A stretch of DNA of 64,000 bases from a virus: IMG/VR virus record IMGVR_UViG_3300030616_000016, positions 70,561 to 134,560 of that record. One strand, written 5' to 3'. The position numbers were made by a program, and so were the translations under genes. The notes beneath the pieces are model-generated. The model was not told the DNA's origin. It did not search any database and saw only the letters and a list, made by a program, of their open reading frames with translations. Positions 6,778-37,074 of the stretch are shown in pieces (position 1 is the first letter of the stretch; every line of letters starts with the position of its first letter).

Positions 6778-7069
6778 TTTTATGTATCCATCTGTAGAAG
6801 GTTCTATCGTTAGTCCATATAAACATTAGTTTGTGTGTATATGGTATTCTTTCTTTATAAAGATCACGAAGTATCTGTCTTAGCTCTCCTGATTCCTTAC
6901 CAGTATTATGTATTATAAGAAGTTCTGTTCTTGTATACAAAGTCTTCGCATAGAATATTTGAAGCCAATCTTTGTTTAAAATAGTATGCCATGTAGACTT
7001 AGCATTCTCAATTAGTTGCTCATCATAGTTGAATAGACTAAGAGATAACAACATTTTCTGGTATAACAT
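6689..7069 (-). CDS. hypothetical protein (126 aa); overlaps its neighbour, start uncertain
   Basis: minus-strand ORF. Confidence 0.3.
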   Translation of the reverse strand: MLYQKMLLSLSLFNYDEQLIENAKSTWHTILNKDWLQIFYAKTLYTRTELLIIHNTGKESGELRQILRDLYKERIPYTHKLMFIWTNDRTFYRWIHKNERHRHFTKSVSQFGCDERSIQSFIDKYS

Positions 7070-7475
7070 GATCAGGTACCAATGTTACTGTTTCATAATC
7101 ACTCTCTATATACCCATAGATAATAGATTTAGTATTCATATCAATTGGCATATCTTGGTTGACTTCACATTTAACATCATGTATTTTGCCTTCTTGTATG
7201 ACACCACAAGTTGAAAACATATTGATGAAGCAACGCTTGATTGTTGTTGAAATACGATCAACAATAATGTTATTCTTAAATACTTTTGCATCACAACAAA
7301 CAAAAGTATTTTTAGCAACGTTATCAATAGATGACTTTATTATAACGGGCACGATTGAAACATGGTCTTTACCATCTTTTACATACTCTTGATATATATT
7401 AAGAAACGTATGTTCCTTGTATATACATTTAGTTATAATATAGCCACCTATGATAGCGCTGATATTTTCACTCAC
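7038..7475 (-). CDS. hypothetical protein (145 aa)
   Basis: minus-strand ORF. Confidence 0.4.
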   Translation of the reverse strand: MSENISAIIGGYIITKCIYKEHTFLNIYQEYVKDGKDHVSIVPVIIKSSIDNVAKNTFVCCDAKVFKNNIIVDRISTTIKRCFINMFSTCGVIQEGKIHDVKCEVNQDMPIDMNTKSIIYGYIESDYETVTLVPDHVIPENVVIS

Positions 7476-7477
7476 AC

Positions 7478-8476
7478 TTATTCTCCTTGATTGTCTTGTG
7501 CACTTACACGAAACTCAATGTTCTCTGATGCATCCCTAATAGCATTGATCATCTTATTGATGCCTTTGTCCGTGGCTTCCAATACATTATCATCAGCTTC
7601 TGGACAAAGCTTCGTGATTTTGTAGTCACAGAAGTGAGGAGTAAGTACACATGTACGAGAAGGGCTATCGCTATTTAGTATATTTGTTAGAGCTTCGCTA
7701 TCAACTGATGAAGTGTTAAGACCAGTAAAGAAATCATTGTTAAATTTAAGGAAGGCAACAACAGTAAAATTATTTCTTCCACTAGTTTTTCTGCTGATTT
7801 GCTCGCTCTTATATACTTCTGTCAAGATTCTAAATCCCTTGTAATAGCGGACATAGCCTTTATAGAAGTCTTCTGCAGTGATATATGCAAGCACAACGGT
7901 TCTTGGATCAGGATCATTTTTGGAGAAAGACTCACTGATCTCAAGCTCTTTAGTATTAGCACGAACCATGTCTATATATTCTTTTAATTTCTGACGCTTA
8001 AGCCTAGCAATTCTACGCTGTTCAATAATGTTAGAGATACTTCCAATGGCTTCATCAAGTACTCTAACGTTACGAATCGCAGACATAAGATCATATAGAG
8101 AGTTCTTATATATAACCGCAAAGCTCTCCAGTCTTTCAAGAGCAGCTTTAGCAACTGCTTCAGCATAACTTTGGTCGTCTATCATATTATCCATGATAGA
8201 ATCGACCTCTTTTTTTACTAGCTCCTCAGAACTGTGACAATATTCTGGTATAGTCTCTGAAATAGAATAGCCTATTGCATTTGCTAGTTCTGATGGTGTC
8301 ATATTGATTATTCTGCTGATGTTTCTTAATGTATCTCCATTAGCAACTAACCTTGGCAAAGGATTGTTGAAGTTAGGTGTATAGGAGCCTTTAACAATAA
8401 CATCAGGGATCATGATACTTAAATTTTCTGTAAGAAAATTGCGTATCTTCTCTCTTTCTGTTTTAGGTGTAGACAT
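7478..8476 (-). CDS. hypothetical protein (332 aa)
   Basis: Minus-strand ORF immediately downstream of the JAB gene. Confidence 0.5.
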   Translation of the reverse strand: MSTPKTEREKIRNFLTENLSIMIPDVIVKGSYTPNFNNPLPRLVANGDTLRNISRIINMTPSELANAIGYSISETIPEYCHSSEELVKKEVDSIMDNMIDDQSYAEAVAKAALERLESFAVIYKNSLYDLMSAIRNVRVLDEAIGSISNIIEQRRIARLKRQKLKEYIDMVRANTKELEISESFSKNDPDPRTVVLAYITAEDFYKGYVRYYKGFRILTEVYKSEQISRKTSGRNNFTVVAFLKFNNDFFTGLNTSSVDSEALTNILNSDSPSRTCVLTPHFCDYKITKLCPEADDNVLEATDKGINKMINAIRDASENIEFRVSAQDNQGE

Positions 8477-8492
8477 TAATTAACTCCGCTTT

Positions 8493-9485
8493 CTAGACTT
8501 TGTTGAAGTCTTTAATTACATGACTATGACATCTAGGACATTCCAGATTATTTTCATCATTAATTACAAACACATTATTACATGCAGGACATGTTATTCC
8601 TTCCTCTTCATCTGCATCTATAATAAGAGGATCAGTAATATGGTTATCAATTGGATCATCGATAGGATCGCCATATCCAGCCCAATTACGAATGTTTTGA
8701 GAAGTTCTGTGATGTCTGTTACCAAACCTAGGATTGTAATAGCTACCACCTATTGGAAACATAGTTGATTTTCCTTCAACTACTTCATCTTTGTCTTCAT
8801 CATATGAATGTGTAGTCATAGATTTTACAAGCTCATTTATCTCTTCTCTACATTTCTTATATGTTTCTGTGTAATCTGCAGTTACAACATTGAGATCAAT
8901 ATTGTCAATGACAAGCTTGGGGTTTTTCTGAACATATTTGACTAAGATGTTACCAGATTTATTTCCTACAAGCATTACTGCCCATCCATGTTGCTGAAGC
9001 ATCTCATCTGCAGCATCTACATCCTGTCCACTCCAGAATGTAGGCATGTTTACATGAGAATGCCAATGGAAATTCATGCGGCTGTATATTGATTTGCCAA
9101 TGTCTTGTTTAATAGTCAGCATATCTTCTTCTGATATATCATCAACAGATATATCTTTAAACTCCTCAGAGTCTTCAATATATTTGTTGATGTAGTTATC
9201 GATAATATCATGCTCTCCCTTAATGAGAGGAAGCTCAATTCTCTTACATCTGTCTTTATTACACAAACGAAAGTAGCCTGAGCTTGCTACTTGTTTAACG
9301 ATGAATACATTATCAATGATAAGATTACCATTCTTGTCTTGGATGATGGTACCAAGTCCACCACATTCGGTTGAACAAGCATTGATCCATCCTCTGATCT
9401 TTTCTCTTAGGATTGCTGGCATGTATATATTGATGCTTTCTTTAGTTTCTAAAGCATCTTTCTCGGATTCGTTCTTGATTTGCAT
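8493..9485 (-). CDS. JAMM/MPN+ (JAB) metalloprotease domain fused to a C-terminal zinc ribbon (330 aa); candidate Ubl-processing / deconjugating enzyme
   Basis: HWHSHVNMPTFWSGQD exactly matches the JAMM motif H-x-H-x7-S-x2-D, with an upstream Glu (STECGG). The C-terminus carries CPACN...CPRCH. Confidence 0.75.
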   Translation of the reverse strand: MQIKNESEKDALETKESINIYMPAILREKIRGWINACSTECGGLGTIIQDKNGNLIIDNVFIVKQVASSGYFRLCNKDRCKRIELPLIKGEHDIIDNYINKYIEDSEEFKDISVDDISEEDMLTIKQDIGKSIYSRMNFHWHSHVNMPTFWSGQDVDAADEMLQQHGWAVMLVGNKSGNILVKYVQKNPKLVIDNIDLNVVTADYTETYKKCREEINELVKSMTTHSYDEDKDEVVEGKSTMFPIGGSYYNPRFGNRHHRTSQNIRNWAGYGDPIDDPIDNHITDPLIIDADEEEGITCPACNNVFVINDENNLECPRCHSHVIKDFNKV

Positions 9486-9511
9486 ATCTTTCCTTTCTAT
9501 GCAAGGAGTTA

Positions 9512-10549
9512 TTATGATGCTGATGTATCTACGCGTCCATCAGGCAATAGTTTCAAGTCTTCTTTTTTTGCATATGCTTTCCAGTGGTCAATATCTGCAT
9601 ATGTATCGCCAGAATTACAACTTTCAAGATATTCTTTCAGAATGGCAAATATTACTCCATAACTACCACATTTAAGATACTGAGGAATGGCTCTGCTAAT
9701 ATTCCCCAAGCATGGACCACCATCAACATTAACATGAGGATGTGGATTTGAAGTTTCTTTACCTGGAGGTTCAATAACTGATGTAATGCGTATTCCTGTA
9801 CTATTATATGGAATACTAACAAGATATGTTCCCATATAATAGTACATGTCATTTTCTTTTATCCAGATAGGTGGTGTAAGCCCCTTAATTGAGTCTGGAG
9901 CGAACTCAATGTTAGCATATGCACCTGATTCATATAATTTCATTACTCCAGTAACTGCTTTGTCAATCATCATTTCTTTCTCTTCACCTTCAGGTATGTT
10001 TTCTATATCTTTTAACCTTTCCTTGGCTATTTCAAGGCGTTTCATAAGAGTAAGTTGATGTGTTTGACAAGCTTTCATTTGGTTTTCTGTGAGCCTCAAA
10101 GATGTGAGAAGACTAGTTTTCTCACTATCTACATTACCAAGAAGCTGACGATAAATACATTCCCGTACATCGTTTCTCTTGTTTGCAATGTCTCGTTGAG
10201 ATCTACGACTAGAGCCACTACCTCTTCTAGAAAGAATTATTCGCGCGTCTCTAAAACTTTTAAATGCGTTTGAGATTACTGCGTCAAATATATCTTCTCT
10301 AGAAGCAAGTATTTGTAAACAGTTTGGTGAATGGGTAATAGTTTTTCTTGACTCGTCAACAAAAGGTTCCCATACATTAGATATGTTAGGAATATCTTCA
10401 ATTGGTGTAGGATTTATAATGCAAAGAACCTCTGAAGTAAAATCCTGGAATCTATCACTAATGATAATGGTTTTTGTCAGAGAGATCTCAAATGTTCTGA
10501 AAACAGCAAATAAATCTGAGCTGTTTGCAACTCCCATATTATCAATCAT
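9512..10549 (-). CDS. protein with C-terminal UBC/E2-like domain (345 aa); the N-terminal ~230 aa are of unknown function
   Basis: IRITSVIEPPGKETSNPHPHVNVDGGPCLGNI parallels the E2 active-site HPN(I/V)xxxGxICL signature (HPH...PCL). Confidence 0.65.
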   Translation of the reverse strand: MIDNMGVANSSDLFAVFRTFEISLTKTIIISDRFQDFTSEVLCIINPTPIEDIPNISNVWEPFVDESRKTITHSPNCLQILASREDIFDAVISNAFKSFRDARIILSRRGSGSSRRSQRDIANKRNDVRECIYRQLLGNVDSEKTSLLTSLRLTENQMKACQTHQLTLMKRLEIAKERLKDIENIPEGEEKEMMIDKAVTGVMKLYESGAYANIEFAPDSIKGLTPPIWIKENDMYYYMGTYLVSIPYNSTGIRITSVIEPPGKETSNPHPHVNVDGGPCLGNISRAIPQYLKCGSYGVIFAILKEYLESCNSGDTYADIDHWKAYAKKEDLKLLPDGRVDTSAS

Positions 10550-10684
10550 ATTTGAAAGCCTTTCTGTGTTTTATGATTAGGGTAAAGAAAAGTCAAGTAC
10601 TATAGTAAGTGTTTACTATAATACTTGACTTTTTTGTGGCCACATAACTACACAAAAGTGTAGCTACATTTTTAGGGCACTTTA

Positions 10685-10900
10685 CTACTTGCCGCCATCA
10701 ACCTTCTGCTGCAGAACGACGATGTCGCCGTTATCCAGGACTGTGTCGAGGTCAGCAGCGTCGCCGTTTACACGGACTTTACGACTGCCCAGCTCAACTC
10801 CAGCTGTTGCAAGAAGGTTCGCGACGGTTGCGTTTGCCGGAGTGAGGCTGTAAGTCTTAACTTCGCCTTCACCCTGAGCCAGCTGTACACATGTAACCAT
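10685..10900 (-). CDS. ThiS/MoaD-type beta-grasp ubiquitin-like protein ending in Gly-Gly-Lys (71 aa)
   Basis: GEGEVKTYSLTPANATVANLLATAGVELGSRKVRVNGDAADLDTVLDNGDIVVLQQKVDGGK fits the ThiS/MoaD pattern (ATV..LL, VAVNG, L.DGD.V.I...V.GG). ATG at 10900 is preceded by AAGGAG. Local GC is about 55% against about 33% for the surroundings. Confidence 0.75.
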   Translation of the reverse strand: MVTCVQLAQGEGEVKTYSLTPANATVANLLATAGVELGSRKVRVNGDAADLDTVLDNGDIVVLQQKVDGGK

Positions 10901-10939
10901 TGCAGAACTCCTTAAATAGGGTTCATGTTTTGTCAACGT

Positions 10940-11614
10940 TCAACTACAAGGCCACACTAGCCTGTAGTCCGCTGACCCTTTTAGAAACATTAATTCATCC
11001 ATAGATAAATTATGTTCATTTGCAACTATAAATCCTATGTTTCCGTAGTCATCGAATCTCATAAGAGATATAAAGTTTTCTATTCCGAACCTATTTTTTG
11101 ATTCGTTTCCACAATAAACGCAATTTGGAAATCCGTATAGCATTTTAGAACCACATAGACCACACTCTTCTTTAGACTCCAGTTTGTAAACTCTTAGTTC
11201 TTTTAGTATTCTTTCATTAATCATAAACGATTGTTGCCCAAGTTTTACCTCTGTACGTTCATGCAAATCTACAAGAGCATCAAATGGAATTCGATTGATC
11301 CAGTAATTTAATGGTCTTAAGCTAGCTGTTCTATTTCTATATATAAGTAAGTTAACTAGTATTTTGTCTGCACATATGGGAGAGCCTTCTTTAAAAATAT
11401 ATCCCATAATTTTATTAGTTCCAATAACATTTCTAGAGCTTCCAATTTCTGGCACTGCTAATGTTAAGCGATTTGGGCTTAGGACTATATCCCATTTCTT
11501 TGATAAATCTTGAGGCTCGTCTGGGTTGTGAGGAGTTATATGCGCCAGCTTTTCTTCTATAGCTCCACGAAATATTGAGCTTTTTCTTCGCTCTAGACAT
11601 TGCGACATATACAA
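10940..11614 (-). CDS. hypothetical protein with CxxCG-x9-CxYCG zinc ribbon; the start may be the internal Met at about 11407 because the ORF overlaps the helicase 3' end
   Basis: ECGLCGSKMLYGFPNCVYCG; the ORF overlaps the uvrD-like C-terminus by 180 nt in another frame. Confidence 0.4.
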   Translation of the reverse strand: MYMSQCLERRKSSIFRGAIEEKLAHITPHNPDEPQDLSKKWDIVLSPNRLTLAVPEIGSSRNVIGTNKIMGYIFKEGSPICADKILVNLLIYRNRTASLRPLNYWINRIPFDALVDLHERTEVKLGQQSFMINERILKELRVYKLESKEECGLCGSKMLYGFPNCVYCGNESKNRFGIENFISLMRFDDYGNIGFIVANEHNLSMDELMFLKGSADYRLVWPCS

Positions 11615-13175
11615 CTCTCCTTTCGGACTCTATTTCGTCTTCTTCTACCATTGTGCATGGATAGTATCCTTCTTCCATCCCGCACATATAAACAATATCA
11701 AACTCAAGTCCCTTTACTCCGTGAACAGTAGCTATAGTCACATCTCCTGCATCGTTATCTGAGTTGCTTGTAAGTTTGATCTTATTTACTAGGTCAATCA
11801 TTGAGTCACAAGAGTCAGACATATAATCTATAATTTCATATAAGGATATCTGATACTTACTCTCGTCCATTTCATCAAGGAGTTTACAAGCATCTTTGAC
11901 TCCTTGCATATCATTGTTTAGGATCTTGTCTATTATCTCTACTATGTCCTCATTATCAACAAGAATTTTAGATTTTTCTTGGCTATTTTCTCTGTTAATA
12001 AATTGGTTAAGAAATCGTTTGCCTAATCCTCTTTTCAAGTATGCAAGAAATTGTGAGGTTCTTTCTATATTGATTCCGTCTTCTTTATTAATAGGATGAA
12101 GCCCACATATAAGATCAATAAGTCTTTTTGTCTTACCTCTTTCTGATAGTGACAGTCCACCTATTCTAGTATATGGTATAGCACGTTGATCAAAATATAT
12201 AGCTACAGTATCTAGTTGTCTATGTGTACGACCTAATATAGCCACTGAATTGCCAGCTTCCATATATCTTTGTATGTCTCGTGCCAAAAACTGATTCTCA
12301 TCAGATTCTGAGTTGAATGGATAGAAATCAACATTAGGTATACTAGCTTCTTCTGCAGTAATTTCACTGCTATAAGTATCTGCATTGCAGGATATTAGTT
12401 TATTACAATATCCAGCAATATGATTGTCAAATCTCCATGTATATGATAATGGAAGTACTTTGGCGCCTGATTCTTTTATGAGCATTTCTGTATTTTCGTA
12501 ACATGCACCACGAAATTGGTACAAGCACTGATTTTGGTCGCCTACTACTGTGAATCCTCTGTTAAAATCATACGTAAGTTCTTTAACCATATTGTATTGA
12601 ACAGTGTTGGTATCTTGCCATTCATCCACAATAATTCCATCGCAACCTACGTCTCTCATATATTCTATGGAGTCGTAAAGAAGATCACTGAAGTCTTTGA
12701 CATGGTTCTTTAGCTTGGTAGTTTTGTATATCTTAGCGAGAGAATCTAAGCTGTCTTGTACTGACAGATTATTTACTTCTACATTATTTTGAAGCTTAAT
12801 CTTTGCAGCTTCAAGTAAAAGCTTATAGATATCACTGTCAGGAGAGTATCCCATTTTCTTTATACAGCTTCTTATCAACTCTGTAGATTCGTTCTGGTCA
12901 ATAATCTCGAATTCTTGTTTGTTATTCTTGAGGAGTTGTAAGCCCAAGCCATGGAATGTTCCAATGAAAACAGCATTGTTCCCAGTTAGTCTACTTGTAA
13001 GTTCTTTTGCTGCCTTATTAGTAAATGTAATAGCAACGAACTTGTAATCTATATCAGCAACACCATAAGCTAATGTGGTTGTTTTGCCACTGCCAGGCGC
13101 AGCCATAACTACGTTTTTGTTGGCTGGGTCTTTCATATGCAAGATAATTGCTTGCTGTTCTTCAGTTGGATTCAT
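11433..13175 (-). CDS. UvrD/Rep/PcrA-like SF1 DNA helicase
   Basis: MNPTEEQQAIIL, AAPGSGKTT (Walker A), IIVDEWQD (motif II), RRVVYVAMSRAKKKL (motif VI), and a C-terminal SRFI. Start placed at the Met preceding NPTEEQ. Confidence 0.85.
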   Translation of the reverse strand: MNPTEEQQAIILHMKDPANKNVVMAAPGSGKTTTLAYGVADIDYKFVAITFTNKAAKELTSRLTGNNAVFIGTFHGLGLQLLKNNKQEFEIIDQNESTELIRSCIKKMGYSPDSDIYKLLLEAAKIKLQNNVEVNNLSVQDSLDSLAKIYKTTKLKNHVKDFSDLLYDSIEYMRDVGCDGIIVDEWQDTNTVQYNMVKELTYDFNRGFTVVGDQNQCLYQFRGACYENTEMLIKESGAKVLPLSYTWRFDNHIAGYCNKLISCNADTYSSEITAEEASIPNVDFYPFNSESDENQFLARDIQRYMEAGNSVAILGRTHRQLDTVAIYFDQRAIPYTRIGGLSLSERGKTKRLIDLICGLHPINKEDGINIERTSQFLAYLKRGLGKRFLNQFINRENSQEKSKILVDNEDIVEIIDKILNNDMQGVKDACKLLDEMDESKYQISLYEIIDYMSDSCDSMIDLVNKIKLTSNSDNDAGDVTIATVHGVKGLEFDIVYMCGMEEGYYPCTMVEEDEIESERRVVYVAMSRAKKKLNISWSYRRKAGAYNSSQPRRASRFIKEMGYSPKPKSLNISSARNWKL

Positions 13176-13179
13176 ATTA

Positions 13180-13434
13180 TTAGTCTGTTGTAGTGTTAAG
13201 GTGGTATTCAATCTCATCAGTAATGGATTTGGTGTCTTTATGCAGCGTTTGTTCTCCCTTAATACTGAGTTTGTACTTATTTCTTTTCTTTGGATCTGCA
13301 TATTTTGTTATAGAGATGCTTATGCGTTCATCTTTCTTTTGTGCTTGTTCTTGCGGCTGTTGTGTTTGTTCTGTTACATCACCTGGCATTTTAATATATC
13401 TCCTAATTTGTCTAGGTCTGATAAAAGATCCCAT
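13180..13434 (-). CDS. small hypothetical protein (84 aa)
   Basis: Minus-strand ORF tightly packed between genes. Confidence 0.3.
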   Translation of the reverse strand: MGSFIRPRQIRRYIKMPGDVTEQTQQPQEQAQKKDERISISITKYADPKKRNKYKLSIKGEQTLHKDTKSITDEIEYHLNTTTD

Positions 13435-14087
13435 TGTTTAAACATATGAAGGTCATTTATTAGTATTTTTTTACCACAGTAATAACATTCTGTAAAGTAT
13501 TCTGTGTGTGGACCAATTAATTTGTAGCGCAATATACCATCATTAAATAAATTATATGAAGCACATGAAGGACATAGGTATGGAATTAGTGCTAACATTG
13601 TTGATAGTATATTACCACGTTTTATACGAGCTGGATTTGATTTGTATATTGTTGTAAAACCAACTACTGAATTTAATAATGATCGAGACATAGCCCCAGA
13701 TGAATTTCTTCTTAATTCTTCTAGTATTGCTGTTTTTGAGTTTATTACTATGCGTTGACATGCAATACTAATACGTTGAACAGAATCATAATGCATATAA
13801 TCTGGATATATAGGTGGTATCTTTATCTCTGACATAGTTCCAATCATTTGTTCAATGATAGGTGTAACTGACCAGTTATACAAATCTCTTCCTACTAAAG
13901 AGCATCTTGTTATAGCACATGGAGGAACATATACATGTTTTTGATAACCGGGCGACAAATTATTAGTCATAGCTTTTGTAATGTCAGCATATGATACAGT
14001 AGGCACTGTCCATTTAGGGAGTATAGTGTTTTTAAGTTCTAGTGTGGAACAGATTGCTTTATTAAGACAGTTTATACATGGATGCAT
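13374..14087 (-). CDS. hypothetical Cys-rich protein (237 aa)
   Basis: Minus-strand ORF with several CxxC pairs; second gene downstream of the E1-like gene. Confidence 0.45.
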   Translation of the reverse strand: MHPCINCLNKAICSTLELKNTILPKWTVPTVSYADITKAMTNNLSPGYQKHVYVPPCAITRCSLVGRDLYNWSVTPIIEQMIGTMSEIKIPPIYPDYMHYDSVQRISIACQRIVINSKTAILEELRRNSSGAMSRSLLNSVVGFTTIYKSNPARIKRGNILSTMLALIPYLCPSCASYNLFNDGILRYKLIGPHTEYFTECYYCGKKILINDLHMFKQWDLLSDLDKLGDILKCQVM

Positions 14088-14107
14088 TGCTCTTTTCTCA
14101 CAGAATA

Positions 14108-14575
14108 TTATTTAGATGTCTCGTATATTGCTTTGATGTCTATGTTTGATGAGTCTTCCAATAGTAATTTTACTAGTCCTATTTTATTCTTGCTGTTAAA
14201 TGAAGACATGATTGCTTTAAGTATATTATCATTGTATGCGCCACAAAATTGGCATATAATCGAGCTTCCCAGACACATACAATTTGAACATCTTTCTGTA
14301 AGTTTAGATGTAATACTTATATAATCGCGTGATATTGTTACTGGCAAGCAACCACAACTATCTATTGCCAAAATATCATAAGTATCGTTGTCTATGTATC
14401 CAACTATTATTTTTTTTGCACGCATAAATTCTTTATATATAAGGAGATTATAAGCATTATGTTCTACTTCAAATGGTATTAATATACTATCACTGTCTTG
14501 TAAGGGTTTTGTAGACCCTTCAGAAAGTGTAAGCCCAGTGAATAATATACGATCAAAACGACACGATTTACTCAT
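14108..14575 (-). CDS. hypothetical Cys-cluster protein (155 aa), translationally coupled to the E1-like gene
   Basis: Start overlaps the E1 stop (ATGA). Contains CSNCMCLGSSIICQFCG. Confidence 0.45.
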   Translation of the reverse strand: MSKSCRFDRILFTGLTLSEGSTKPLQDSDSILIPFEVEHNAYNLLIYKEFMRAKKIIVGYIDNDTYDILAIDSCGCLPVTISRDYISITSKLTERCSNCMCLGSSIICQFCGAYNDNILKAIMSSFNSKNKIGLVKLLLEDSSNIDIKAIYETSK

Positions 14576-15309
14576 GGTCTTTTATCCTTAAAGATATCCC
14601 ATGTCTTGAAATTAATATCTATTCCAAATGGAATTGTTTCTTCTGTTCCATTTGCAATATGATAAATACATGAGGATATCCAGCTTGCTGTCCACATTAC
14701 TGGAAATATAATGCTCTTTTCTGTACACTTGATATCAGGCATGTCTTCATCATTATCAAGATTGTTTTCCTCGAACAGCTGAACTTCATCTGGCATGTAA
14801 GGAAGTACTGCGTATGCTTCGCATTGAGTTGCTCCAATTCTTGAGTCTATAAACATGGAAATACGAGCCATATTTTGACAACTATATTCAAACAGGAGTT
14901 GTCTTGCCTTCATGTTATCGACGGCAGAAATAATAATGTCAGCTTTTCTAGCGTATTTGTCAACATCGTCTACGCTTTCAAGTCTGTCTTTATGAAATTC
15001 CCACTCCCAGTTGGGCTTTGAATATCCGCTTATAATCTTTTCAAGTTCAGCTACTTTTAGGGCTCCAGTTTGCCGCCAATTATAAATTTGGTTTGCCTGA
15101 TTATGGACTTCAATTGAATCAAAGTCTACAATAGTACATTTGGTGATACCCATTTTTGCCATAGCAACTGCAGCAAATGAACCTATGCTTCCAGCTCCAA
15201 GCATAAATACATTAAGCTTCATCAGCTTATCAATGTCAACTAGATCAAAGTGACCTTTATAAATTTCTTCATTCTCATTGAATACAAATTCTTCTTCCTG
15301 GTTAGACAT
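14572..15309 (-). CDS. ThiF/MoeB-family E1-like adenylyltransferase (about 246 aa)
   Basis: VFMLGAGSIGSFAAVAMAKMGITKCTIVDFDSIEVHNQANQ is the classic E1/ThiF Rossmann GxGxxG...D.D.VE.SNL.RQ motif; DNMKARQLLFEYSCQN also present. ATG at 15309 is preceded by AAAGGAA. Confidence 0.8.
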   Translation of the reverse strand: MSNQEEEFVFNENEEIYKGHFDLVDIDKLMKLNVFMLGAGSIGSFAAVAMAKMGITKCTIVDFDSIEVHNQANQIYNWRQTGALKVAELEKIISGYSKPNWEWEFHKDRLESVDDVDKYARKADIIISAVDNMKARQLLFEYSCQNMARISMFIDSRIGATQCEAYAVLPYMPDEVQLFEENNLDNDEDMPDIKCTEKSIIFPVMWTASWISSCIYHIANGTEETIPFGIDINFKTWDIFKDKRP

Positions 15310-15328
15310 TGAGTAATTCCTTTCTGGT

Positions 15329-15967
15329 CTACTCACCGAATATTGATTGCATCGAAAAGTATGTATAACATACTAGCTCATATTCCTGAATCCATTCTTC
15401 TCTTTTTGTTCCGCTTTTATCTCTTATGATGTAGCTCGGATGATAAAGACAGATTATTGGAATATCATTATTGTTATTGTTATAGTAAAATGTTTCTCCA
15501 ACTAAATCTCCCATTTTAGTTGTAGTATTTACATCTTTTATTAATGCTATAGCTGATTGTTTGCCAAGGCAAACAATCAACCATGGATCCAGTATTTCTA
15601 ATTCTTTGTGAAGAAATGGAATACATTCTTCAACACAGTCTGTGGGTGGAGGACAAGTTTTCTCACCTTGCCTGAATGGTTTGCATCTGGCTATGTTTGT
15701 TAAGTAGCATTCTGATGCTGGCAATTCGGCGGCTTCTGTCATCTCATTGAGTTCTTGTCCAGCTGGACCACAAAATGGGATGCCTTGGCTATCTTCCTGG
15801 GCCCCAGGAGATTCGCCGATAAAAACTATGTTGTATCGGTAGCTTCCTCTGCTAAAAACAGGACTAGATGCTATATTTCTTAGTCTGCATTTTGTGCAGT
15901 CTAGTACGTCCTGTTCTAAGTCTTGGAGCTGACTTTCTTTACTTATATTTTGAGTATCTCCAGACAT
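15329..15967 (-). CDS. uracil-DNA glycosylase, family 4 (Fe-S type)
   Basis: CTKCRL Cys cluster, GESPGAQED (motif A), IPFCGPAG, and HPS (motif B). Confidence 0.8.
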   Translation of the reverse strand: MSGDTQNISKESQLQDLEQDVLDCTKCRLRNIASSPVFSRGSYRYNIVFIGESPGAQEDSQGIPFCGPAGQELNEMTEAAELPASECYLTNIARCKPFRQGEKTCPPPTDCVEECIPFLHKELEILDPWLIVCLGKQSAIALIKDVNTTTKMGDLVGETFYYNNNNNDIPIICLYHPSYIIRDKSGTKREEWIQEYELVCYTYFSMQSIFGE

Positions 15968-16385
15968 TTTGCGTAAATCCACTAGGGGTTTTGAGTCTAA
16001 TGCGCTCTTTGTCAATACTGACAATCTCTGAGCCTGGTACAAAGAGCTGGGCTAGGCTCATTTCAGTATACTTTGTTGAAGTTTTGGTAAGCTCTTCTTC
16101 TGACCAACCAAACTCCTTAGCCTTTGATACAGCTTCAACAAACTCACTGTCATTATATACATCAGGATTGTATTCTATATCACCGACATCAACTACCTGA
16201 CATATGATATTCTTAATCCTTGACTTGATGAATTTTGCATCGTCGTTCATATGAATATCTTCTAGTTTACTACACATGACAAGCAAGTCACCGCATAGAT
16301 TCCATGCGGGACTTGCTTGCAGTGTTTCTAGATTTGATTCTGACAGTGGAAGTATTTGCGTGATCTTTTCAGCTATAGCTTCCAT
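15939..16385 (-). CDS. hypothetical protein (148 aa)
   Basis: minus-strand ORF. Confidence 0.45.
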   Translation of the reverse strand: MEAIAEKITQILPLSESNLETLQASPAWNLCGDLLVMCSKLEDIHMNDDAKFIKSRIKNIICQVVDVGDIEYNPDVYNDSEFVEAVSKAKEFGWSEEELTKTSTKYTEMSLAQLFVPGSEIVSIDKERIRLKTPSGFTQNVWRYSKYK

Positions 16386-21872: not shown

Positions 21873-23167
21873 TACCCCACGCCTAAAGGCGGGGGCTTCC
21901 TAATTCATCGAAAATTGCGTTCCATACTGGCTACGTCTTACATCTTCTCCAAAGGCTTTAGGTTCCCCTTGCCCAGGGGTACAAAATGCAAAATTCAAAA
22001 TATTACTAGATGCAAGGGCATCTCTATCGTGTTTGGCACCACAAGTGCAAGTCCAATATCTGTCACTTAGCTTAAGATTATTATTTATAGCGCCGCACTG
22101 GTTACACATCTTGCTGGATGGTTCAAATCTTCCTATAGTCAAAACATGCTTTCCATACCAACCTGCCTTATACTCAAGAAAGGTACGAAAAGTATACCAT
22201 CCAACATCAGAGATAGCCTTGGCCAAACAATGATTCTTCACCATTCCAGAAACGTTTAAATCCTCAAGACACACTGCTTGGTTCTCGTCAATGAGCCTTT
22301 TGGACAATTTATGCAAAAAATCTTTACGTTGATTAGAAATCTTCTCATGTATCAACGCTACCTTCCTACGAGCCTTGTTTCTATTTGAAGAACCTTTCTT
22401 CTTCTTTGATAATTGTTTTTGCTTTCTTGCCAATCTTCTTTCAAGTTTCTTTAGGTATCTTGGATTATCTATTTTCTCGCCTGTTGATAGTGTTGCAAAA
22501 TGTTTTAATCCAACGTCAACACCTACACTATTATCTCGTTCAGGATTACATTTGATAGGTAATTCTTCTCCATTGTCAACCAAAATAGAAGCAAAGTATT
22601 TCCCAGAAGGAGCCATGAATATAGTTACAGTTTTAATATTGCCTTCAAATTGTCTATGGAATTTGCATTTGATGCCATCACGGAATTTCATTACATATAG
22701 CCTATTATTATCAAAATCCACATTACTTCCTTGTGGAAATTGACAAGATTGCTTTTTGAATTTCTTCTTAAATTGAGGATATCTTGCCTGTTTCTTAAAA
22801 AACCGCCGGAAAGCATTGTCAAGGTTTCTAAAGGCCATTTGCAAAGATTGACTATTAACTTCCTTCAGCCAACCATGCTCAGATTTCATATGTTTCAATT
22901 GCTTTATCAAATCAAAACAGGAAGGAGATTTCCCCGTTTTTTGATAAGACTCTGTTTTCTTTTGGAGTCCCAAATTGTATATGAACCGTACACAACCAAA
23001 ATGCTTCACAAGAAGCTCCTGTTGTTTTTTGTTGGGGTATATTTTGTATTTATATGCTCGTATCATTATATTTATAGTATAGCACAGGTTTCTGTAAATG
23101 TCAAGAGAAAAACGCATTCTTATATCCCCATGGCTAAAGCCAGGGGTCTTACGAATGCACCTTGATA
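21866..23167 (-). mobile_element. IS200/IS605-family tnpB-only (IS1341-like) element with subterminal imperfect hairpins
   Basis: Left end begins TTATCAAGGTGCATTCGTAAGACCCCTGGCTTTAGCCATGGGG; right end finishes CCCCCGCCTTTAGGCGTGGGGTAATGTCAC. Both ends recur at 33634-33883 and 62731-62781. Confidence 0.7.
21900..23066 (-). CDS. tnpB: TnpB (OrfB) RuvC-like RNA-guided nuclease / IS605 accessory protein
   Basis: MIRAYKYKIYPNKKQQELL...FGCVRFIYN N-terminus; C-terminal CNQCG...CTCG zinc finger; RuvC-like regions. Confidence 0.85.
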   Translation of the reverse strand: MIRAYKYKIYPNKKQQELLVKHFGCVRFIYNLGLQKKTESYQKTGKSPSCFDLIKQLKHMKSEHGWLKEVNSQSLQMAFRNLDNAFRRFFKKQARYPQFKKKFKKQSCQFPQGSNVDFDNNRLYVMKFRDGIKCKFHRQFEGNIKTVTIFMAPSGKYFASILVDNGEELPIKCNPERDNSVGVDVGLKHFATLSTGEKIDNPRYLKKLERRLARKQKQLSKKKKGSSNRNKARRKVALIHEKISNQRKDFLHKLSKRLIDENQAVCLEDLNVSGMVKNHCLAKAISDVGWYTFRTFLEYKAGWYGKHVLTIGRFEPSSKMCNQCGAINNNLKLSDRYWTCTCGAKHDRDALASSNILNFAFCTPGQGEPKAFGEDVRRSQYGTQFSMN

Positions 23168-28239: not shown

Positions 28240-29895
28240 TTATTTTTTAATACTGATAGAGAACATTTCTTTATCCTCTGTAAAGTATACACTGGTACCA
28301 TCAGTGTATAGTGGCATTGATGAGTCTATCGGCGGATTAGTAATAATGCGTTTTTGATTATCTTTAGAGATCTCAATCTTTTGATCGCTAAATACATCAA
28401 TGCAAACTCCATTATTAAGAACAATGAAATTGATATTATCAACATCGCGCTCTTCTTTGTCTAGCAGAATACCTTTATTTTCTTTGCTGCATAGTTTGAA
28501 TCGGAATCTATAATATTTACCAGATTCTTCTGCTATGCATACTAGAATTCCTCTGCTATGTTTTGCATTGATTATTCTAAGTCCATGGAGTTCCTCAATA
28601 GGACCTAGAAAACTACCAGAATCTTCTAATGGCGCATATGCCCAACATTTGTCTAGGAAGTTGCTAATTACTACTCCACTAAACATTTGATTCATAGTAC
28701 CAAGATTTTGGGATGGATTCGAGCATGCCGCGCTCTTATTCCCCATATTTTTTGCATATACCTCATATACTGAGGCGCCGTTTCTGCAAAATATACTACC
28801 ATTGTATATCATGGCTTTGTCTGCGGCAAATTTACCTGGTATATCCGTTTCTATTTCTACACAGCCATTATCAATTATGCCTAACACAGGGTCAGGAGAT
28901 AGATTGCATAGAAATGCCTTTTTATTGGATATATCCTTAAATATGGATTTACCACAGTATATTGCCTTATCCGTAAATGTATAGAAAATACCATTTAGGA
29001 ATTGTATTGATTTAATCGGCTCATTGTACTTATACATTGATTTAATGTCAAAATTTGCTGTGCTTCTTATAGTCTTTTGAACCATAGCTATATTAATTGT
29101 AGCGTCAGGTTTAGGTGGAGCGCTGCGTTTATTCTCAATGAATATTGACTTAAACCACTCCATATGAGCTTTAGGAATAACTGAGAAGTCTTGACATACG
29201 GATGGAATGGTAACCTTACTATCAAATACGGATATACCATCATCCATTCGCTTAGTAAATTCTCTTGGTTTATAGTCTGGGTGTTTACCCTTATAAGGAT
29301 GGATACCAACATAAAGCTGAAATGCTATTACTGCAAACGAGAACCAATCGCTTAGTTCTGTGAACTTTTTGGCTAAGCGGTCTCTTATTGAATCCATAAT
29401 AGCATTAGCTGGAAATGACTTTGTCTGATAACTGTCAACGTCAATAAAGTAAGGTACTTTATGACCTTTGTCTATCAGAAAGTTCATTTCATTCATATCT
29501 ACTATCAGGCATTGTTTAGAATGAATGTGCTCGACCGTGTCTTGTATATTGCGCACAATTTCTAATACTTGATTAGGAGATATATTATTATCTTTTCTGT
29601 ACTGCTTAGTAAAGAGCTTGCATAGAGCACTTGTCTCTTTAATATACTTCATTGTATATCCGATGACATTGCTTGTCTTTTTATCGCAAACAATATCTTC
29701 CGGTTTGATAACATTGCCGGCTGTTATATAGCCAAGCTCTTCAATCTTTCTTAATGGTATCATATGCTTGATATCATTATAAATCTTGAAGGCAATATTG
29801 TCTTTTTTATATACAGAACCTTGACCACCAGATGCAATAAAATCATTGTCTTTCAGGTCAAATGAAGCCTTTGTTCTATTTACAATGACTCTCAT
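28240..29895 (-). CDS. Hanks-type Ser/Thr protein kinase with a C-terminal beta-rich domain
   Basis: Gly loop GGQGSVY, AFKIY (VAIK), catalytic loop HSKQCLIVDMNEMNFLI, and DVDSY (DFG-like). Confidence 0.7.
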   Translation of the reverse strand: MRVIVNRTKASFDLKDNDFIASGGQGSVYKKDNIAFKIYNDIKHMIPLRKIEELGYITAGNVIKPEDIVCDKKTSNVIGYTMKYIKETSALCKLFTKQYRKDNNISPNQVLEIVRNIQDTVEHIHSKQCLIVDMNEMNFLIDKGHKVPYFIDVDSYQTKSFPANAIMDSIRDRLAKKFTELSDWFSFAVIAFQLYVGIHPYKGKHPDYKPREFTKRMDDGISVFDSKVTIPSVCQDFSVIPKAHMEWFKSIFIENKRSAPPKPDATINIAMVQKTIRSTANFDIKSMYKYNEPIKSIQFLNGIFYTFTDKAIYCGKSIFKDISNKKAFLCNLSPDPVLGIIDNGCVEIETDIPGKFAADKAMIYNGSIFCRNGASVYEVYAKNMGNKSAACSNPSQNLGTMNQMFSGVVISNFLDKCWAYAPLEDSGSFLGPIEELHGLRIINAKHSRGILVCIAEESGKYYRFRFKLCSKENKGILLDKEERDVDNINFIVLNNGVCIDVFSDQKIEISKDNQKRIITNPPIDSSMPLYTDGTSVYFTEDKEMFSISIKK

Positions 29896-33887: not shown

Positions 33888-35558
33888 TTAGTTTATAAGG
33901 CAAAACAGATACTTCTGAATTCTGTCACTGCCTGTTGCATATTCGTCTATCAGGCGATATAAGAGCTTGTCCCAGCCTTTAGATAGCATCAACTGCATTA
34001 CAGTGATGTATATCCTTGTTCCAGACCTCTTACCACTATTTGCATATATTCCATCATCAGATAGCTTACGACTGCATGCATGAGTATTTGTCTGGTGGCT
34101 GAACTTATCTAATACTATCCAGAACACTTTCCCAGACCATGCCTCAACTGTCTGTCCGTTATAAGTATGCTTTTGTGGCTTGCATTCTTTTATAAGAGCA
34201 GATGGTATATTCCCATCTTCTCCTTCTAGAAAGTGAGGAACGGGCGCCGGCCCTGATTCCTCTGCAATATTATTAAGCATAGCTTCTACTATCTGACCTG
34301 GATTCCTACGCTTTAGAGTTGCAAGAGCGTTGGTTACCACTTCTGCTGGTTTGCCATCTATCTTAGGCATTTGCTCGTCTGGTATAATATTTACTATACC
34401 TTTATTACCGTGACGATTTGTAATTTTGTCGCCACTTCTGAGAATATGAAATCTCTCGTATTCGACAATAAGTTTTGTACAAACTGTGTTTGCTACTTTT
34501 GTTCTTATCTCACTGATATTAGACAGTTTAGCTTCACGCTTGACATGACATTTAAGCGTGATTGTTTCTTCTCCATCAGAATAAGAACCAATTATCTGAT
34601 TTGGTCTTACAATGTCTCCGGCTTTGGCTTCCATCTTTAGGCTTTGTTTGCACCATCCTGGTACTACGAATGTCTGTTTCTCAGGAATGACACATGTCAT
34701 TTTTCTAGCTGCTGACTTACTCATAACAATCTGTTCTTTGTATACACCAGGCATGATTGCATGAACTGTAAGTAAGTGCTTGCCATTAAGATTGTTATCA
34801 TAATCTTCTGGAAACACCATAGGTTTATCTGGACTAACTAGCTTGCTGGAAGCCTTGAAATTAGATGCAGTGGTTCTGCGGCGATTATATTCTGGTACAA
34901 TAAGATTCTTATTGAGTATATCGCAATAAACCCGACCTCTTTTGGTGAAGCATCCAATATCGTTTATTTTGCATTCTTCAGCCATGTACATTGTGCGACC
35001 ACAATTCCCCGATGACTGACTTATACTTGTCCAATCAAGAATGCCTTCTGTATTGAATGGCATAAATTCATCCGTTCGTTCTTGAAATAGCTCTAATGAT
35101 ATTTTGGGTCCATAGTGAGTAGCTATTCCCTTTACGACATGAGATAATCTTGAAGTTTTAAGTAAATTATCGAGCTTCATTTGAGCTGTGGTAGAATCTT
35201 CTTGATGTCCGAACATAAAGAAGTCTGACAGTTGTGTAGCATATGCTTGCTTAATGAATTTAAGAAGAAGCTCGTATGGTGTTGATAAATATGTGTGATT
35301 AATATTCATACATCTGTTATTAAAGATTGGCATTGGATTAAGTGTATAGCATAATTGCCGGCTTATTCCATTTACAGAAAACATACCCTTGTTATCAATC
35401 TTAGGTATATTTAGTTTTACGACTGTTTGCATGCTCTGGGATGCCTCTTTAACAAGCATTTTTGTATGAAATAGGTCATCATATTCTTCTATATGACAGT
35501 CAACAGGCAAACAATTACATATAGGAAACAATCTTGCAAGATGAGACTTATTCATCAT
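33888..35558 (-). CDS. multisubunit RNA polymerase beta-subunit-like protein (C-terminal module of beta)
   Basis: GDKITNRHGNKGIVNIIPDEQMPKIDGKPAEVVTNALA aligns with RpoB GDKMAGRHGNKGVVS...; the GKVFWIVLDKFSHQTNTHACSRK region matches the RpoB C-terminal conserved block. Confidence 0.8.
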   Translation of the reverse strand: MMNKSHLARLFPICNCLPVDCHIEEYDDLFHTKMLVKEASQSMQTVVKLNIPKIDNKGMFSVNGISRQLCYTLNPMPIFNNRCMNINHTYLSTPYELLLKFIKQAYATQLSDFFMFGHQEDSTTAQMKLDNLLKTSRLSHVVKGIATHYGPKISLELFQERTDEFMPFNTEGILDWTSISQSSGNCGRTMYMAEECKINDIGCFTKRGRVYCDILNKNLIVPEYNRRRTTASNFKASSKLVSPDKPMVFPEDYDNNLNGKHLLTVHAIMPGVYKEQIVMSKSAARKMTCVIPEKQTFVVPGWCKQSLKMEAKAGDIVRPNQIIGSYSDGEETITLKCHVKREAKLSNISEIRTKVANTVCTKLIVEYERFHILRSGDKITNRHGNKGIVNIIPDEQMPKIDGKPAEVVTNALATLKRRNPGQIVEAMLNNIAEESGPAPVPHFLEGEDGNIPSALIKECKPQKHTYNGQTVEAWSGKVFWIVLDKFSHQTNTHACSRKLSDDGIYANSGKRSGTRIYITVMQLMLSKGWDKLLYRLIDEYATGSDRIQKYLFCLIN

Positions 35559-37074
35559 TATCTTTCTCCAATACTAGGACTCTGTCCCTGAGATACTTGA
35601 TGAGTTGATTTTTGTCTTCGTTATTCAGTACATTCATGATGTGTTCTATGGCTAGAGTATAGAAAGCGTCGCCTTCTACCATGCTTAGTCTAGGATCAAA
35701 CACTGCATAGAATATAGAATTCTCTGCGTCTACTATATCATTAATTAACTTAGGGTTATCCCTATTATATAGTAGATTAAGATATGGCTCGACTTGTTCT
35801 ACGTCTATCTCACAATCTTTAAGTATTTCGCGAGCTACGTTTATGTCGCTAATACCATCATTTTTAAGTACTTTAATGAGACTGACATATGATTCATCAA
35901 GTTTATGTTTAGAATCAAATAGGCGCTGGTTTGCTTGTTCTGATAGCTTATCTGCAGCTTTGGCTATTTCTATATTGCCATCTGCCAATACTCTTGCACG
36001 ACATGCTGCGGCTCCAGCCTTGCCAATCTCTGATTTCTGGAGAATGAGGCCTTTTGCAACCTTGATGTCGTCTTCTCGTATTTCAGATAAGGACTTGCCT
36101 TTAAAGAATCCTGTAAGGTCCTTAACGTCAATGTCTTCTGCATTACACATGGCTTTTATTGTCTCAGAATTTTCTGTGTCAATAAGGTCATGTGGTCCAA
36201 TTACTCTGAATTTTGAGATTCTTTTTACACCATCATCTATTATGTTTTCCAAGTCAGGGGTTTCTTCTTGATTATCGATAAGAAACTCTTTGTCCCACTT
36301 TGTTGTGGACCAGTCTTCTTCTATATCAATATCAGGATACCCAAGTACTGTTTCAATTAGATCTCCATCGGAATCAGCACCCATGCCATCAGTAATAATG
36401 GGATGAATAATGATCCTGTTGGATTTAGTAGGAAGTATGTATAACTTGCGCATAGAATCGTTGTGTAGCAAGGGATTTCTGAATGCAATTACATAAGGCT
36501 TCCCTTCTGTATTGGACTCTTCTTTCCTTTCTTTCCACTTTTCTATGAACTTGACATATATATGCTGAGGTAATTTTATGTGGTCATAAGGCATTCTGAA
36601 GTCGGTAGCAATATGGCCTTTACCAGAATATAATGCTCTGAAACCAAGGATATATGTATTAAACAATCCTGATTTACCGACCAGCTCTTTAGCCATTATT
36701 TTCCATACTCTTTCAGCACTATCTTCCACTACTTCTGTGTCAATATTGCCAATACCAAGTTGGCTAATTGACACAAGTAGTTTTTCTGTAGCGATTTGTA
36801 TATCATTTAATACTATGTGCCCGGCTACTGGTCCTGGCATATTCATATTAGGGATTATTACTTTTTGAACCTTCTTGCCGAAGTAATTATTTATTTCAAT
36901 CGGCAAGTGTACATACCCGCCATACTGAAGTACATCTTCATCAAGTATGGTGTTTTTGAGGTTCTTATTAAGTAAATCCGGTTTTGAAATGATCGCTTTT
37001 GTTGTATTCGAAAATAGATTTCTTCGTATCTGTATATTACCACACTGTTTCGATAAACTCGTCAGATTCATCAT
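35548..37074 (-). CDS. multisubunit RNA polymerase beta'-subunit-like protein (catalytic N-terminal module)
   Basis: VIAFRNPLLHNDSMRKLYILP (NRQPSLH-like) and IITDGMGADSDGDLIE (NADFDGD catalytic loop variant). Confidence 0.75.
   Translation of the reverse strand: MMNLTSLSKQCGNIQIRRNLFSNTTKAIISKPDLLNKNLKNTILDEDVLQYGGYVHLPIEINNYFGKKVQKVIIPNMNMPGPVAGHIVLNDIQIATEKLLVSISQLGIGNIDTEVVEDSAERVWKIMAKELVGKSGLFNTYILGFRALYSGKGHIATDFRMPYDHIKLPQHIYVKFIEKWKERKEESNTEGKPYVIAFRNPLLHNDSMRKLYILPTKSNRIIIHPIITDGMGADSDGDLIETVLGYPDIDIEEDWSTTKWDKEFLIDNQEETPDLENIIDDGVKRISKFRVIGPHDLIDTENSETIKAMCNAEDIDVKDLTGFFKGKSLSEIREDDIKVAKGLILQKSEIGKAGAAACRARVLADGNIEIAKAADKLSEQANQRLFDSKHKLDESYVSLIKVLKNDGISDINVAREILKDCEIDVEQVEPYLNLLYNRDNPKLINDIVDAENSIFYAVFDPRLSMVEGDAFYTLAIEHIMNVLNNEDKNQLIKYLRDRVLVLEKDNDE

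Follow-up and report, generated by a model that had tools for sequence, protein, structure and literature searches.

Is the modification of proteins by a ubiquitin-like protein (Ubl) a weapon that only bacteria direct against phages, or do phages also carry the complete machinery, and if so, for what purpose? This question is raised by a locus in a DNA stretch of 64,000 nt, hereafter the window, that covers positions 70,561 to 134,560 of the IMG/VR virus record IMGVR_UViG_3300030616_000016, of which the source contig is metagenomic and 231.6-kb long. Four genes of the window code for a Ubl, a ThiF-type activating enzyme (E1), a protein resembling ubiquitin-conjugating enzymes (E2) and a JAMM metalloprotease (JAB). 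Prokaryotic cascades composed of a Ubl, an E1, an E2 and a deubiquitinase have been characterized only recently (2023-2024), and only as anti-phage defenses of bacteria; the genes described here lie on the virus side. They probably form a self-contained Ubl conjugation cascade of a large phage, which belongs to a widespread and previously unnamed lineage of phages and mobile elements and serves the infection programme of the element itself. The four assignments made in a preliminary description of this DNA all hold when examined with family profiles and motifs. The four open reading frames (ORFs) are present at the coordinates given below, and an independent gene caller recovers the same genes on the source contig. 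Chance is ruled out, because the synteny is kept in two relatives and the four-gene set recurs in ~100 independent loci. The features that carry the argument are as follows.

8493..9485, minus strand: JAMM/MPN+ metalloprotease of 330 amino acids (aa) with a C-terminal zinc ribbon (invariant motif, family profile)
9366-9368, 9060-9062 and 9021-9023, minus strand: codons of the JAMM active-site residues E40, H142 and D155, respectively (motif)
9512..10549, minus strand: E2-like protein of 345 aa, with an alpha/beta region at the N-terminus, then a helix, and the UBC domain at the C-terminus
9545-9982, minus strand: UBC domain of the E2-like protein, ~aa 190-335 (profile, profile-profile and structure comparison)
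9710..9742, minus strand: E2 active-site motif H270-P-H272-V-N-V-D-G-G-P-C280, with the Cys280 codon at 9710-9712 (family alignments, hhalign)
10685..10900, minus strand: beta-grasp Ubl of 71 aa ending ...KVDGG-K, with the Gly69-Gly70 codons at 10691-10696 (family profile against PDB)
14572..15309, minus strand: ThiF-type single-domain E1 of 245 aa from ATG, or 254 aa from an upstream GTG at 15336 (Pfam ThiF)
14725-14727, minus strand: codon of the invariant E1 residue Cys204 in GTG numbering (family alignment)

Three of the four proteins are weak or silent when searched as single sequences, and family-level profiles were therefore needed. In the Pfam searches that the preliminary description had proposed, the E1 scored above the ThiF cut-off, the Ubl and the protease fell below those of ThiS and Prok-JAB, and UQ_con gave no match. 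The E2-like protein, in which an HPH...PCL region had been likened to a UBC active site, is a case in point. Its first 190 residues comprise a small alpha/beta region and a helix of ~65 residues, and profile, profile-profile and structure comparisons agree that the C-terminal ~150 aa of the 345-aa protein have the UBC/E2 fold, with the cysteine at the catalytic position. A profile of three full-length E2 proteins found only noise in the PDB, and the wider domain alignment was required. With this domain profile all matches listed among PDB sequences were ubiquitin-conjugating enzymes of the eukaryotic type, the top one being UBE2L3 (5.4e-4), aligned from helix 1 through the Cys. Comparison by hhalign of the family with four canonical E2s gave a probability of 94.7% (E 5.7e-8, 125 columns); it pairs HPH with HPN and C280 with the catalytic Cys, and the His-to-Cys spacing is 10, as in UBE2D2. 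Alignments of 65 and 30 sequences show residues H270, P271, H272, C280 and G282 to be invariant or almost invariant, and Cys280 is the putative catalytic cysteine of the E2. The motif also matches a UBC active-site pattern.

The domain thus delimited belongs to a large family. An exhaustive profile search at E<=1e-3 retrieved 1,490 cluster representatives (clusters at 50% identity), all of which share the C-terminal 120-150 residues; the part upstream of the UBC domain ranges from nothing to ~600 residues. In the scans made here no Pfam or PHROGs family covers this domain family, which remains below the gathering scores of Pfam UQ_con (PF00179) and Prok-E2: among 65 family members UQ_con produced a single weak match (0.0054) and the Prok-E2 models none (0/65). 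The 345-aa window protein itself matched nothing in Pfam, PADLOC (even at E<=1), PHROGs or NCBIfam. A word-index protein search returned three proteins with the E2 and four with the domain alignment, and the structural neighbors of the E2 in BFVD are all uncharacterized phage proteins. Many family members carry a strongly acidic tail after the UBC domain, often with Cys residues (e.g., ...DPDYEEDD...C..C). The E2 of locus L003 (5424-6518), one of the two relatives mentioned above, has a poly-Asp tail, which the window E2 lacks. Such tails are reminiscent of the acidic tail of Cdc34. Five cassettes (L004, L010, L016, L020 and L062) contain two adjacent E2-domain paralogues, possibly with two target specificities.

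The protease carries the residues E40, H142-x-H144, S152 and D155 (E...HSH-x7-S-xx-D), which are invariant in its family, and a CxxC...CxxC zinc ribbon at its C-terminus. As a single sequence it matches Pfam Prok-JAB with 0.0018 and 18.5 bits, below the cut-off of 25. The family profile retrieves Rpn11 from the PDB (3e-8), followed by PSMD14, a Caldiarchaeum Rpn11-like protein, JAMM1, AMSH and CSN5, with the catalytic motif aligned. The proteins matched by this profile are all isopeptidases of ubiquitin or Ubls, and the JAB enzyme is predicted both to mature the Ubl precursor and to deconjugate the Ubl. The presumed substrate behaves similarly in searches. Alone, the Ubl scores 0.0025 and 18.7 bits against Pfam ThiS, below the cut-off of 22.5; a 16-sequence profile matches SAMP2 in the PDB end to end, finishing at the Gly-Gly pair (3.2e-7), then PF1061, MoaD and ThiS, with ubiquitin at 0.07.

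The C-terminal tail of the Ubl links these two proteins. The GG pair is at least 90% conserved in the family, whereas what follows it varies: GG is followed by K in the window and by KIS or TAGALAA in the two close relatives, L001 and L003. Among the 41 Ubls of JAB-containing loci (not de-replicated) in which GG lies <=10 residues from the C-terminus, 40 have a tail of 1-10 non-conserved residues and one ends at GG; in these GG-type Ubls a conserved PKVEGG precedes the variable tail. A conserved GG with a variable tail is the pattern of the precursors of ubiquitin, ISG15 and BilA, and for BilA precursors JAB has been shown to cut behind the conserved Gly (PMC10557695). Maturation by JAB therefore fits, and these comparative data lend support to the earlier proposal that the residue after GG would be removed by JAB before activation by the E1. 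In several phages (L015, L019, L021, L026 and L004) two Ubls are joined in tandem; each unit ends VKGG, the second with one extra residue, an arrangement that resembles ISG15 or polyubiquitin.

The E1 is the one component recognized as a single sequence, by Pfam ThiF (PF00899) with 1.4e-21 and 77.2 bits against a cut-off of 28.1. Its family profile matches UBA5 (9e-18), ThiF, MoeB, Cap2 and others in the PDB, in the nucleotide-binding half only. Residues G47, G49 and S53 (GxGxxGS), D71, D73, K94, D140, R145, R166 and C204 are invariant; C204 is so in 11 diverse E1s, including those of crAss-like phages and of the Flavobacterium phage FpV4, and is a good candidate for the thioester cysteine. 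Its position presumably corresponds to that of Cys187 of MoeB.

Since ThiF and MoeB act in sulfur transfer, these four genes could be asked to do the same. In such a pathway, of the ThiS/ThiF or MoaD/MoeB type, the Ubl would be converted into a thiocarboxylate that serves to thio-modify a cofactor, a tRNA or a nucleotide, and JAB would do no more than unmask its GG, as Mec+ does for CysO. The Ubl profile does match MoaD and ThiS besides SAMP2, the best NCBIfam match of the E1 is a ThiF model (NF006395), and homologues in crAss-like and FpV4 phages are labeled 'thiamine biosynthesis protein' in GenBank. However, the NF006395 score of 82 bits is far under the curated cut-off of 159, and all other ThiF, MoeB, UbaA and 6A-MBL scores in NCBIfam lie further below theirs. 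The E1 has no rhodanese domain, and no gene of the ThiG, ThiH, MoaE, rhodanese or cysteine desulfurase type was found in the window neighborhood or among the recurrent neighbors of related loci. A neighboring sulfurtransferase had been named beforehand as an example of a sign that would place the Ubl in such a pathway; no gene of this kind was seen, though the Ubl profile matches include MoaD and ThiS. Moreover, a UBC-fold protein with an invariant Cys is obligatory in ~100 loci and has no use in sulfur-carrier systems, and both tandem di-Ubls and precursors in which a Ubl is fused to another part are typical of protein modifiers. We regard a sulfur-carrier role as very unlikely.

Do the four genes belong together? 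The two syntenic relatives, loci L001 and L003, in which the E2-like protein shows 45-57% identity, keep the same block E1-UvrD-Ubl-E2-like-JAB. In L001 a uracil-DNA glycosylase (UDG) gene lies upstream of E1, as in the window, and L003 ends within E1. Wider loci were found by a degenerate DNA scan for the motif HPHV...G.PC.GN, which yielded 25 loci in IMG/VR and another 72 in bacterial genomes, the majority of them metagenome-assembled; their JAB, E1 and Ubl genes were detected with profiles from the three close relatives (the window, L001 and L003). In nearly all of these 25 + 72 loci JAB, E1 and usually Ubl genes adjoin the E2-domain gene, the usual order being (Ubl)-E2-JAB-E1-(Ubl) with the Ubl gene at either end. 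E1 stands beside the E2-domain gene in 18 of the 25 viral and 51 of the 72 genome loci, and most exceptions end at the edge of the locus. The bacterial copies come mainly from Myxococcota, with several per genome and three on one complete chromosome, from lineages of the Candidate Phyla Radiation (CPR), and from Planctomycetota and Gammaproteobacteria. Recurrent neighbors in Myxococcota are genes for a primase, a PD-(D/E)XK nuclease, an annealing protein and a HerA/TraD-like ATPase, that is, mobile-element modules. In five loci (L008 0-1876, L023 479-2988, L049, L077 and L098) a classic-clade AAA+ ATPase is encoded a few genes from the cassette, accompanied in L008 and L023 by a ParB-like protein, which may point to an unfoldase linked to the Ubl in some of the systems.

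In the cascade that we propose, the JAMM protease would remove the C-terminal Lys, so that the 71-aa Ubl ends in an exposed Gly-Gly. Its terminal Gly would then be adenylated by the small ThiF-type E1, which is presumably homodimeric, as are ThiF and MoeB; the E1 would next form a thioester with the Ubl, probably via the invariant Cys204. From there the Ubl would be handed to Cys280 in the UBC domain of the 345-aa E2. Because no E3 is evident, the choice of the target is given to the N-terminal domain and the long helix of the E2, and the Ubl would be joined to a lysine of that target. The JAMM enzyme could also reverse the modification. By this route the phage would mark proteins of the host or its own while it takes over the cell and replicates, and the cassette would not be cargo that provides immunity. 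The role in its own programme is favored because the cassette has a fixed place in replication or early modules in four unrelated groups of mobile elements.

Several points weigh against this reading. All steps of the cascade are drawn from homology, and synteny is the sole ground on which a role in the element's own life cycle is favored over that of defense cargo. In the window, the E1 gene lies ~3.7 kb from the other three genes, with UvrD in between. That it nevertheless belongs with them, as had been proposed, is borne out by the fact that E1 directly follows JAB in most related phages, which is the reason for assigning the window E1 to the cassette; the operon is tight in most loci and the layout of the window is therefore read as a rearranged version. 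A similarly split E1 occurs in L021. Profile alignments of the E1 to solved E1s stop at ~residue 160, short of Cys204, and the closest sequence relatives of the Ubl (SAMP2, MoaD and ThiS) include sulfur carriers. Five cassettes (L035, L041, L051, L055 and L101) have no JAB gene; their E2 abuts E1 and their Ubls end ...EERPQGS. The expectation that Ubls of cassettes without JAB would end exactly at GG was ruled out by this RPQGS end, which suggests another C-terminal chemistry or another protease. Finally, there is no capsid or terminase gene within the 64 kb, and for this reason the label 'phage' is only deduced, from the gene organization and from the presence of UvsX, NAMPT and a split RNA polymerase beta subunit.

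Can the proposed cascade be found in phages that are in culture? Megablast of the region revealed no nucleotide relatives among GenBank phages, tblastn with the E2 gave no match to them, and a close-relative scan of IMG/VR with the E2 returned nothing. In contrast, tblastn with the E1 hit 75 GenBank phage records, which are FpV4-like phages of Flavobacterium psychrophilum and crAss-like Steigviridae; the crAss-like carriers include crAss001, DAC15/17 and seven genera of Asinivirinae. In GenBank the E1 homologue is labeled 'thiamine biosynthesis protein (ThiF)' and the other cassette genes 'metalloprotease' or 'hypothetical'. These phages share the gene order primase / gp79 / gp78 / gp77 / gp76 (ThiF) / gp75 / UDG, which is constant in the seven crAss-like genera. 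The 'metalloprotease' gp77 has an HSH...SGTD JAMM motif. The gp78 family gives no direct signal to canonical E2s; it aligns with the E2-domain family at 85% probability (E 5.9e-6, 107 columns), YMHSHV pairing with HPHV and the Cys residues with each other. The link of gp78 to E2s is thus a transitive one, via the E2-domain family, and is moderately supported.

At its N-terminus gp79 has a Ubl-like domain, the end of which reads KKIKSG-A (in FpV4, KQVKSGG); another 100-200 residues come after it. In phage cr106_1 (L106 3187-4390) an HNH endonuclease gene splits the gp79 homologue right at the junction of the Ubl and the C-terminal domain, directly behind the conserved Gly, leaving a free-standing Ubl ending KKIKSG-KF and a separate C-terminal protein. 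That these Ubls are N-terminal domains of larger proteins bears on a further explanation, namely that the Ubl is a cleavable folding or assembly module freed by JAB and is never conjugated. There is a precedent in phage lambda, where gpI (a Ubl) and gpK (JAB plus NlpC/P60) constitute the sole phage pair of Ubl and JAB described before in the literature searched (PMC1779556; conference report PMC12908700). The cassette resembles this pair in combining a phage Ubl with a JAB enzyme and in the cleavage after the Ubl domain that is predicted for it, the gp79-like fusions resemble gpI, and the Ubl profile weakly matches the lambda tail tip assembly protein I (E 0.18). The lambda pair, however, has no E1 or E2, is located in a tail module, and its Ubl is not thought to be conjugated. 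Mere processing would leave the invariant and tightly linked E1 and Cys-bearing E2 unexplained, the window Ubl is free-standing with one residue to remove, and the cassettes lie in replication rather than tail modules; we rate this explanation slightly below even the sulfur-carrier pathway.

If the cassette conjugates its Ubl, to which of the known systems does it belong? The preliminary description had compared it with the Bil/BUBL operons. The equal composition (Ubl, E2, JAB and E1) stands, whereas the defining features of Bil and Bub are absent. Cassette and Bil systems both have the four activities on separate genes, some tandem beta-grasp Ubls, no E3 and an E2 that is thought to choose the target. 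In the Bil Ubl, too, a conserved Gly precedes up to nine non-conserved residues, which JAB removes (PMC10557695). The E1 of Bil, BilD, is a large protein with an inactive and an active adenylation domain in tandem (IAD-AAD) and a mobile Cys domain (PMC11601596), whereas the E1 described here is a single ThiF domain of ~245 aa. Similarly, in BilB the classical histidine of the HPN motif is missing and a conserved His follows the Cys (Iyer 2006, PMC1779556; PMC10557695), whereas the E2 described here keeps HPH before the Cys, as do canonical E2s. The phage proteins have no PADLOC or PDB match that would link them to BilA or BilB, and they are encoded in a phage replication module instead of a defense island.

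Other systems differ in other respects. Type II systems of cyclic-oligonucleotide-based antiphage signaling (CBASS) share E1, E2 and JAB chemistry on mobile or defense loci, and the best PADLOC matches of the E1 are models of CBASS Cap2 (5.9e-18); the PADLOC JAB model matched by the protease is taken by us to be of the CBASS Cap3 type. This similarity is confined to single domains. However, in CBASS the E2 and E1 are fused in Cap2 and the C-terminus of the CD-NTase acts as the 'Ubl', whereas E2 and E1 are separate here, and no CD-NTase or CBASS effector is encoded in the window neighborhood. Bub (6E/DUF6527) systems have Ubl-E2 or E2-E1 fusions, form oxyester intermediates on Ser and use a serine protease, DUF6527, in contrast to the separate genes, invariant Cys and JAMM enzyme of the cassette; a match to DUF6527 was not obtained. 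Because the defining features of Bil and Bub fail, the cassette is placed in a separate lineage and, judged by its sequences, is not a Bil, Bub or CBASS member.

Its parts look closer to archaeal and eukaryotic machinery (UBE2L3, Rpn11, SAMP2 and UBA5) than to bacterial defense enzymes. With the archaeal SAMP/UbaA/JAMM1 system it shares a Ubl nearest SAMP2, a JAB nearest Rpn11, Rpn11-like proteins and JAMM1, and a small ThiF/UbaA-like E1; sampylation, however, has no E2. The Caldiarchaeum/Asgard Ub-E1-E2-RING-Rpn11 operon includes a RING E3 and ubiquitin proper, whereas the cassette has no RING and its hosts are bacterial. From the canonical eukaryotic UBC E2s (UBE2L3 and UBE2D2) the phage E2 is separated by ~12-17% identity, by its 190-aa N-terminal extension with the long helix, by the replacement of the HPN Asn with His, and by being encoded by phages and mobile elements of bacteria.

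The kinship of JAB with true deubiquitinases would also suit counter-defense by mimicry, in which the phage Ubl and JAB disturb a host Bil, Bub or CBASS system, for example by deconjugating the host Ubl or by competing for its enzymes. Host Bil systems reportedly tag phage tail proteins (10.1101/2023.09.04.556158), and it has been suggested that the many de-SAMPylases of Borg elements serve such an end (PMC12660748). Yet a stand-alone deubiquitinase would suffice for this, and that ~100 loci keep the full co-evolving set of E1, E2 and Ubl speaks for active conjugation. Neither the Ubl nor the E1 or E2 of the phage closely resembles its counterpart in Bil, Bub or CBASS, and the hosts (Bacteroidota, Myxococcota and CPR) are diverse. 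Of all explanations weighed here, mimicry seems to us the least probable.

A stronger competitor accepts the conjugation chemistry and differs in its use: the cassette would be cargo immunity, a Bil-like defense or a means of superinfection exclusion that tags the structural proteins of competitors. Its composition equals that of Bil (PMC11601596), and its E1 has the Cap2 matches just described. The very variable N-terminal lengths of the E2s and the two E2 paralogues of some loci would fit an arms race over targets, and the cassette also occurs in integrated elements of bacterial chromosomes, in several copies per Myxococcota genome. Nonetheless, its position is fixed in the replication module of seven crAss-like genera, FpV4 and the jumbo phage of the window, and not in variable accessory islands. 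The E2 and Ubl match no PADLOC model, the traits that define the E1 and E2 of Bil are missing, and typical regulators of defense operons were not seen among the neighbors that recur across loci. We consider cargo immunity unlikely, albeit less so than the other alternatives, and retain the conjugation cascade for the phage's own infection programme as the preferred reading.

This reading, if true, adds a new mode of post-translational protein manipulation by phages and reverses the usual roles in the phage-bacterium conflict as to who ubiquitinates. It would also correct a widespread annotation and bear on the origin of E2-dependent ubiquitination. The E2 of the phage cassette is more canonical (HPN-Cys) than the defense E2s. 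The searchable literature, the coverage of which is incomplete, yielded no account of a phage that encodes an E1/E2/Ubl/JAB set; a comprehensive review of jumbo-phage genomics names none of the four components. The divergent version in the cultivable phages crAss001, DAC15/17 and Flavobacterium FpV4 opens the hypothesis to genetics and mass spectrometry. A bolder proposal, possible but doubtful at present, is that Ubl signaling of this kind is a core phage-borne function and not a defense: phages and integrative elements of Bacteroidota, Myxococcota, CPR and other hosts, crAss-like gut phages among them, would tag replication and repair or immune proteins of host or phage during takeover. Viruses would then have served as a reservoir when ubiquitination first evolved, and possibly as its vehicle.

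What else surrounds the cassette? In general, the window fits a jumbo phage. It has a GC content of ~36%, every substantial ORF is on the minus strand, and no tRNA genes are present in its 64 kb. It codes for a UvsX-type recombinase with an adjacent reverse transcriptase, a TnpB/IS605 OrfB, a second transposase-like protein, a Ser/Thr-kinase-like protein, a fragment of a multisubunit RNA polymerase beta subunit and a NAMPT-like protein. These side genes and the immediate neighbors of the cassette are as follows.

878-2026, 21900-23117, 43010-44020, 28240-29895, 33888-37074 and 44039-45196, minus strand: side genes (reverse transcriptase by UvsX, TnpB/IS605 OrfB, transposase-like, kinase-like, RNA polymerase beta and NAMPT-like)
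10588-10633 and 10642-10669, minus strand: two hairpins in the 135 nt that separate the Ubl and E2 genes, the former a perfect 21-bp stem with a U-tract and the latter a 12-bp stem (RNA fold)
10940..11407, minus strand: zinc-ribbon ORF of 155 aa that lies between the Ubl gene and UvrD (also called on the source contig; L001 and L003 have homologues)
13374-14087, minus strand: Cys-rich ORF Cys1, conserved in L001 and L003
14108-14575, minus strand: Cys-rich ORF Cys2, kept in L003 only
15329-16042, minus strand: UDG gene beside the cassette (locus comparison; its counterparts lie at 7495-8097 in L021, 1839-2588 in L029, 7331-8008 in L030 and 8926-9591 in L103)

The UDG gene was considered as a specific partner of the cassette and rejected as a general rule, since it adjoins the cassette only in the window lineage, L021, crAss-like phages and FpV4. 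The UDGs beside cassettes are judged from their sequences to be of two families, the family-4 type and the family-1 type. Most other loci lack UDG, which is therefore more likely a marker of the replication module than a partner.

The search for an E3 candidate in the neighborhood of the cassette found none. The Cys-rich ORFs were rejected as RING/E3 proteins: on inspection the spacing of their Cys residues is not RING-like, they match no family and they are missing from the wider family of loci. The translational coupling that had been noticed between E1 and Cys2 is present, the E1 stop overlapping the Cys2 start (ATGA), and a gap of 20 nt separates Cys2 from Cys1; it is uncertain whether Cys1 and Cys2 are part of the system. 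The same uncertainty applies to the zinc-ribbon ORF, which matches no family and is conserved only in the window lineage with L001 and L003. Directly downstream of JAB, the ORFs at 7478-8476 and 7038-7475 are kept in L001 and L003 and match no family; a link to the cassette, or a role as its targets, is conceivable.

The spacer between the Ubl and E2 genes folds with -45.1 kcal/mol (z = -6.9 against shuffled sequences). Its hairpins are a possible terminator or attenuator after the Ubl gene, which may let the Ubl be expressed above the enzymes.

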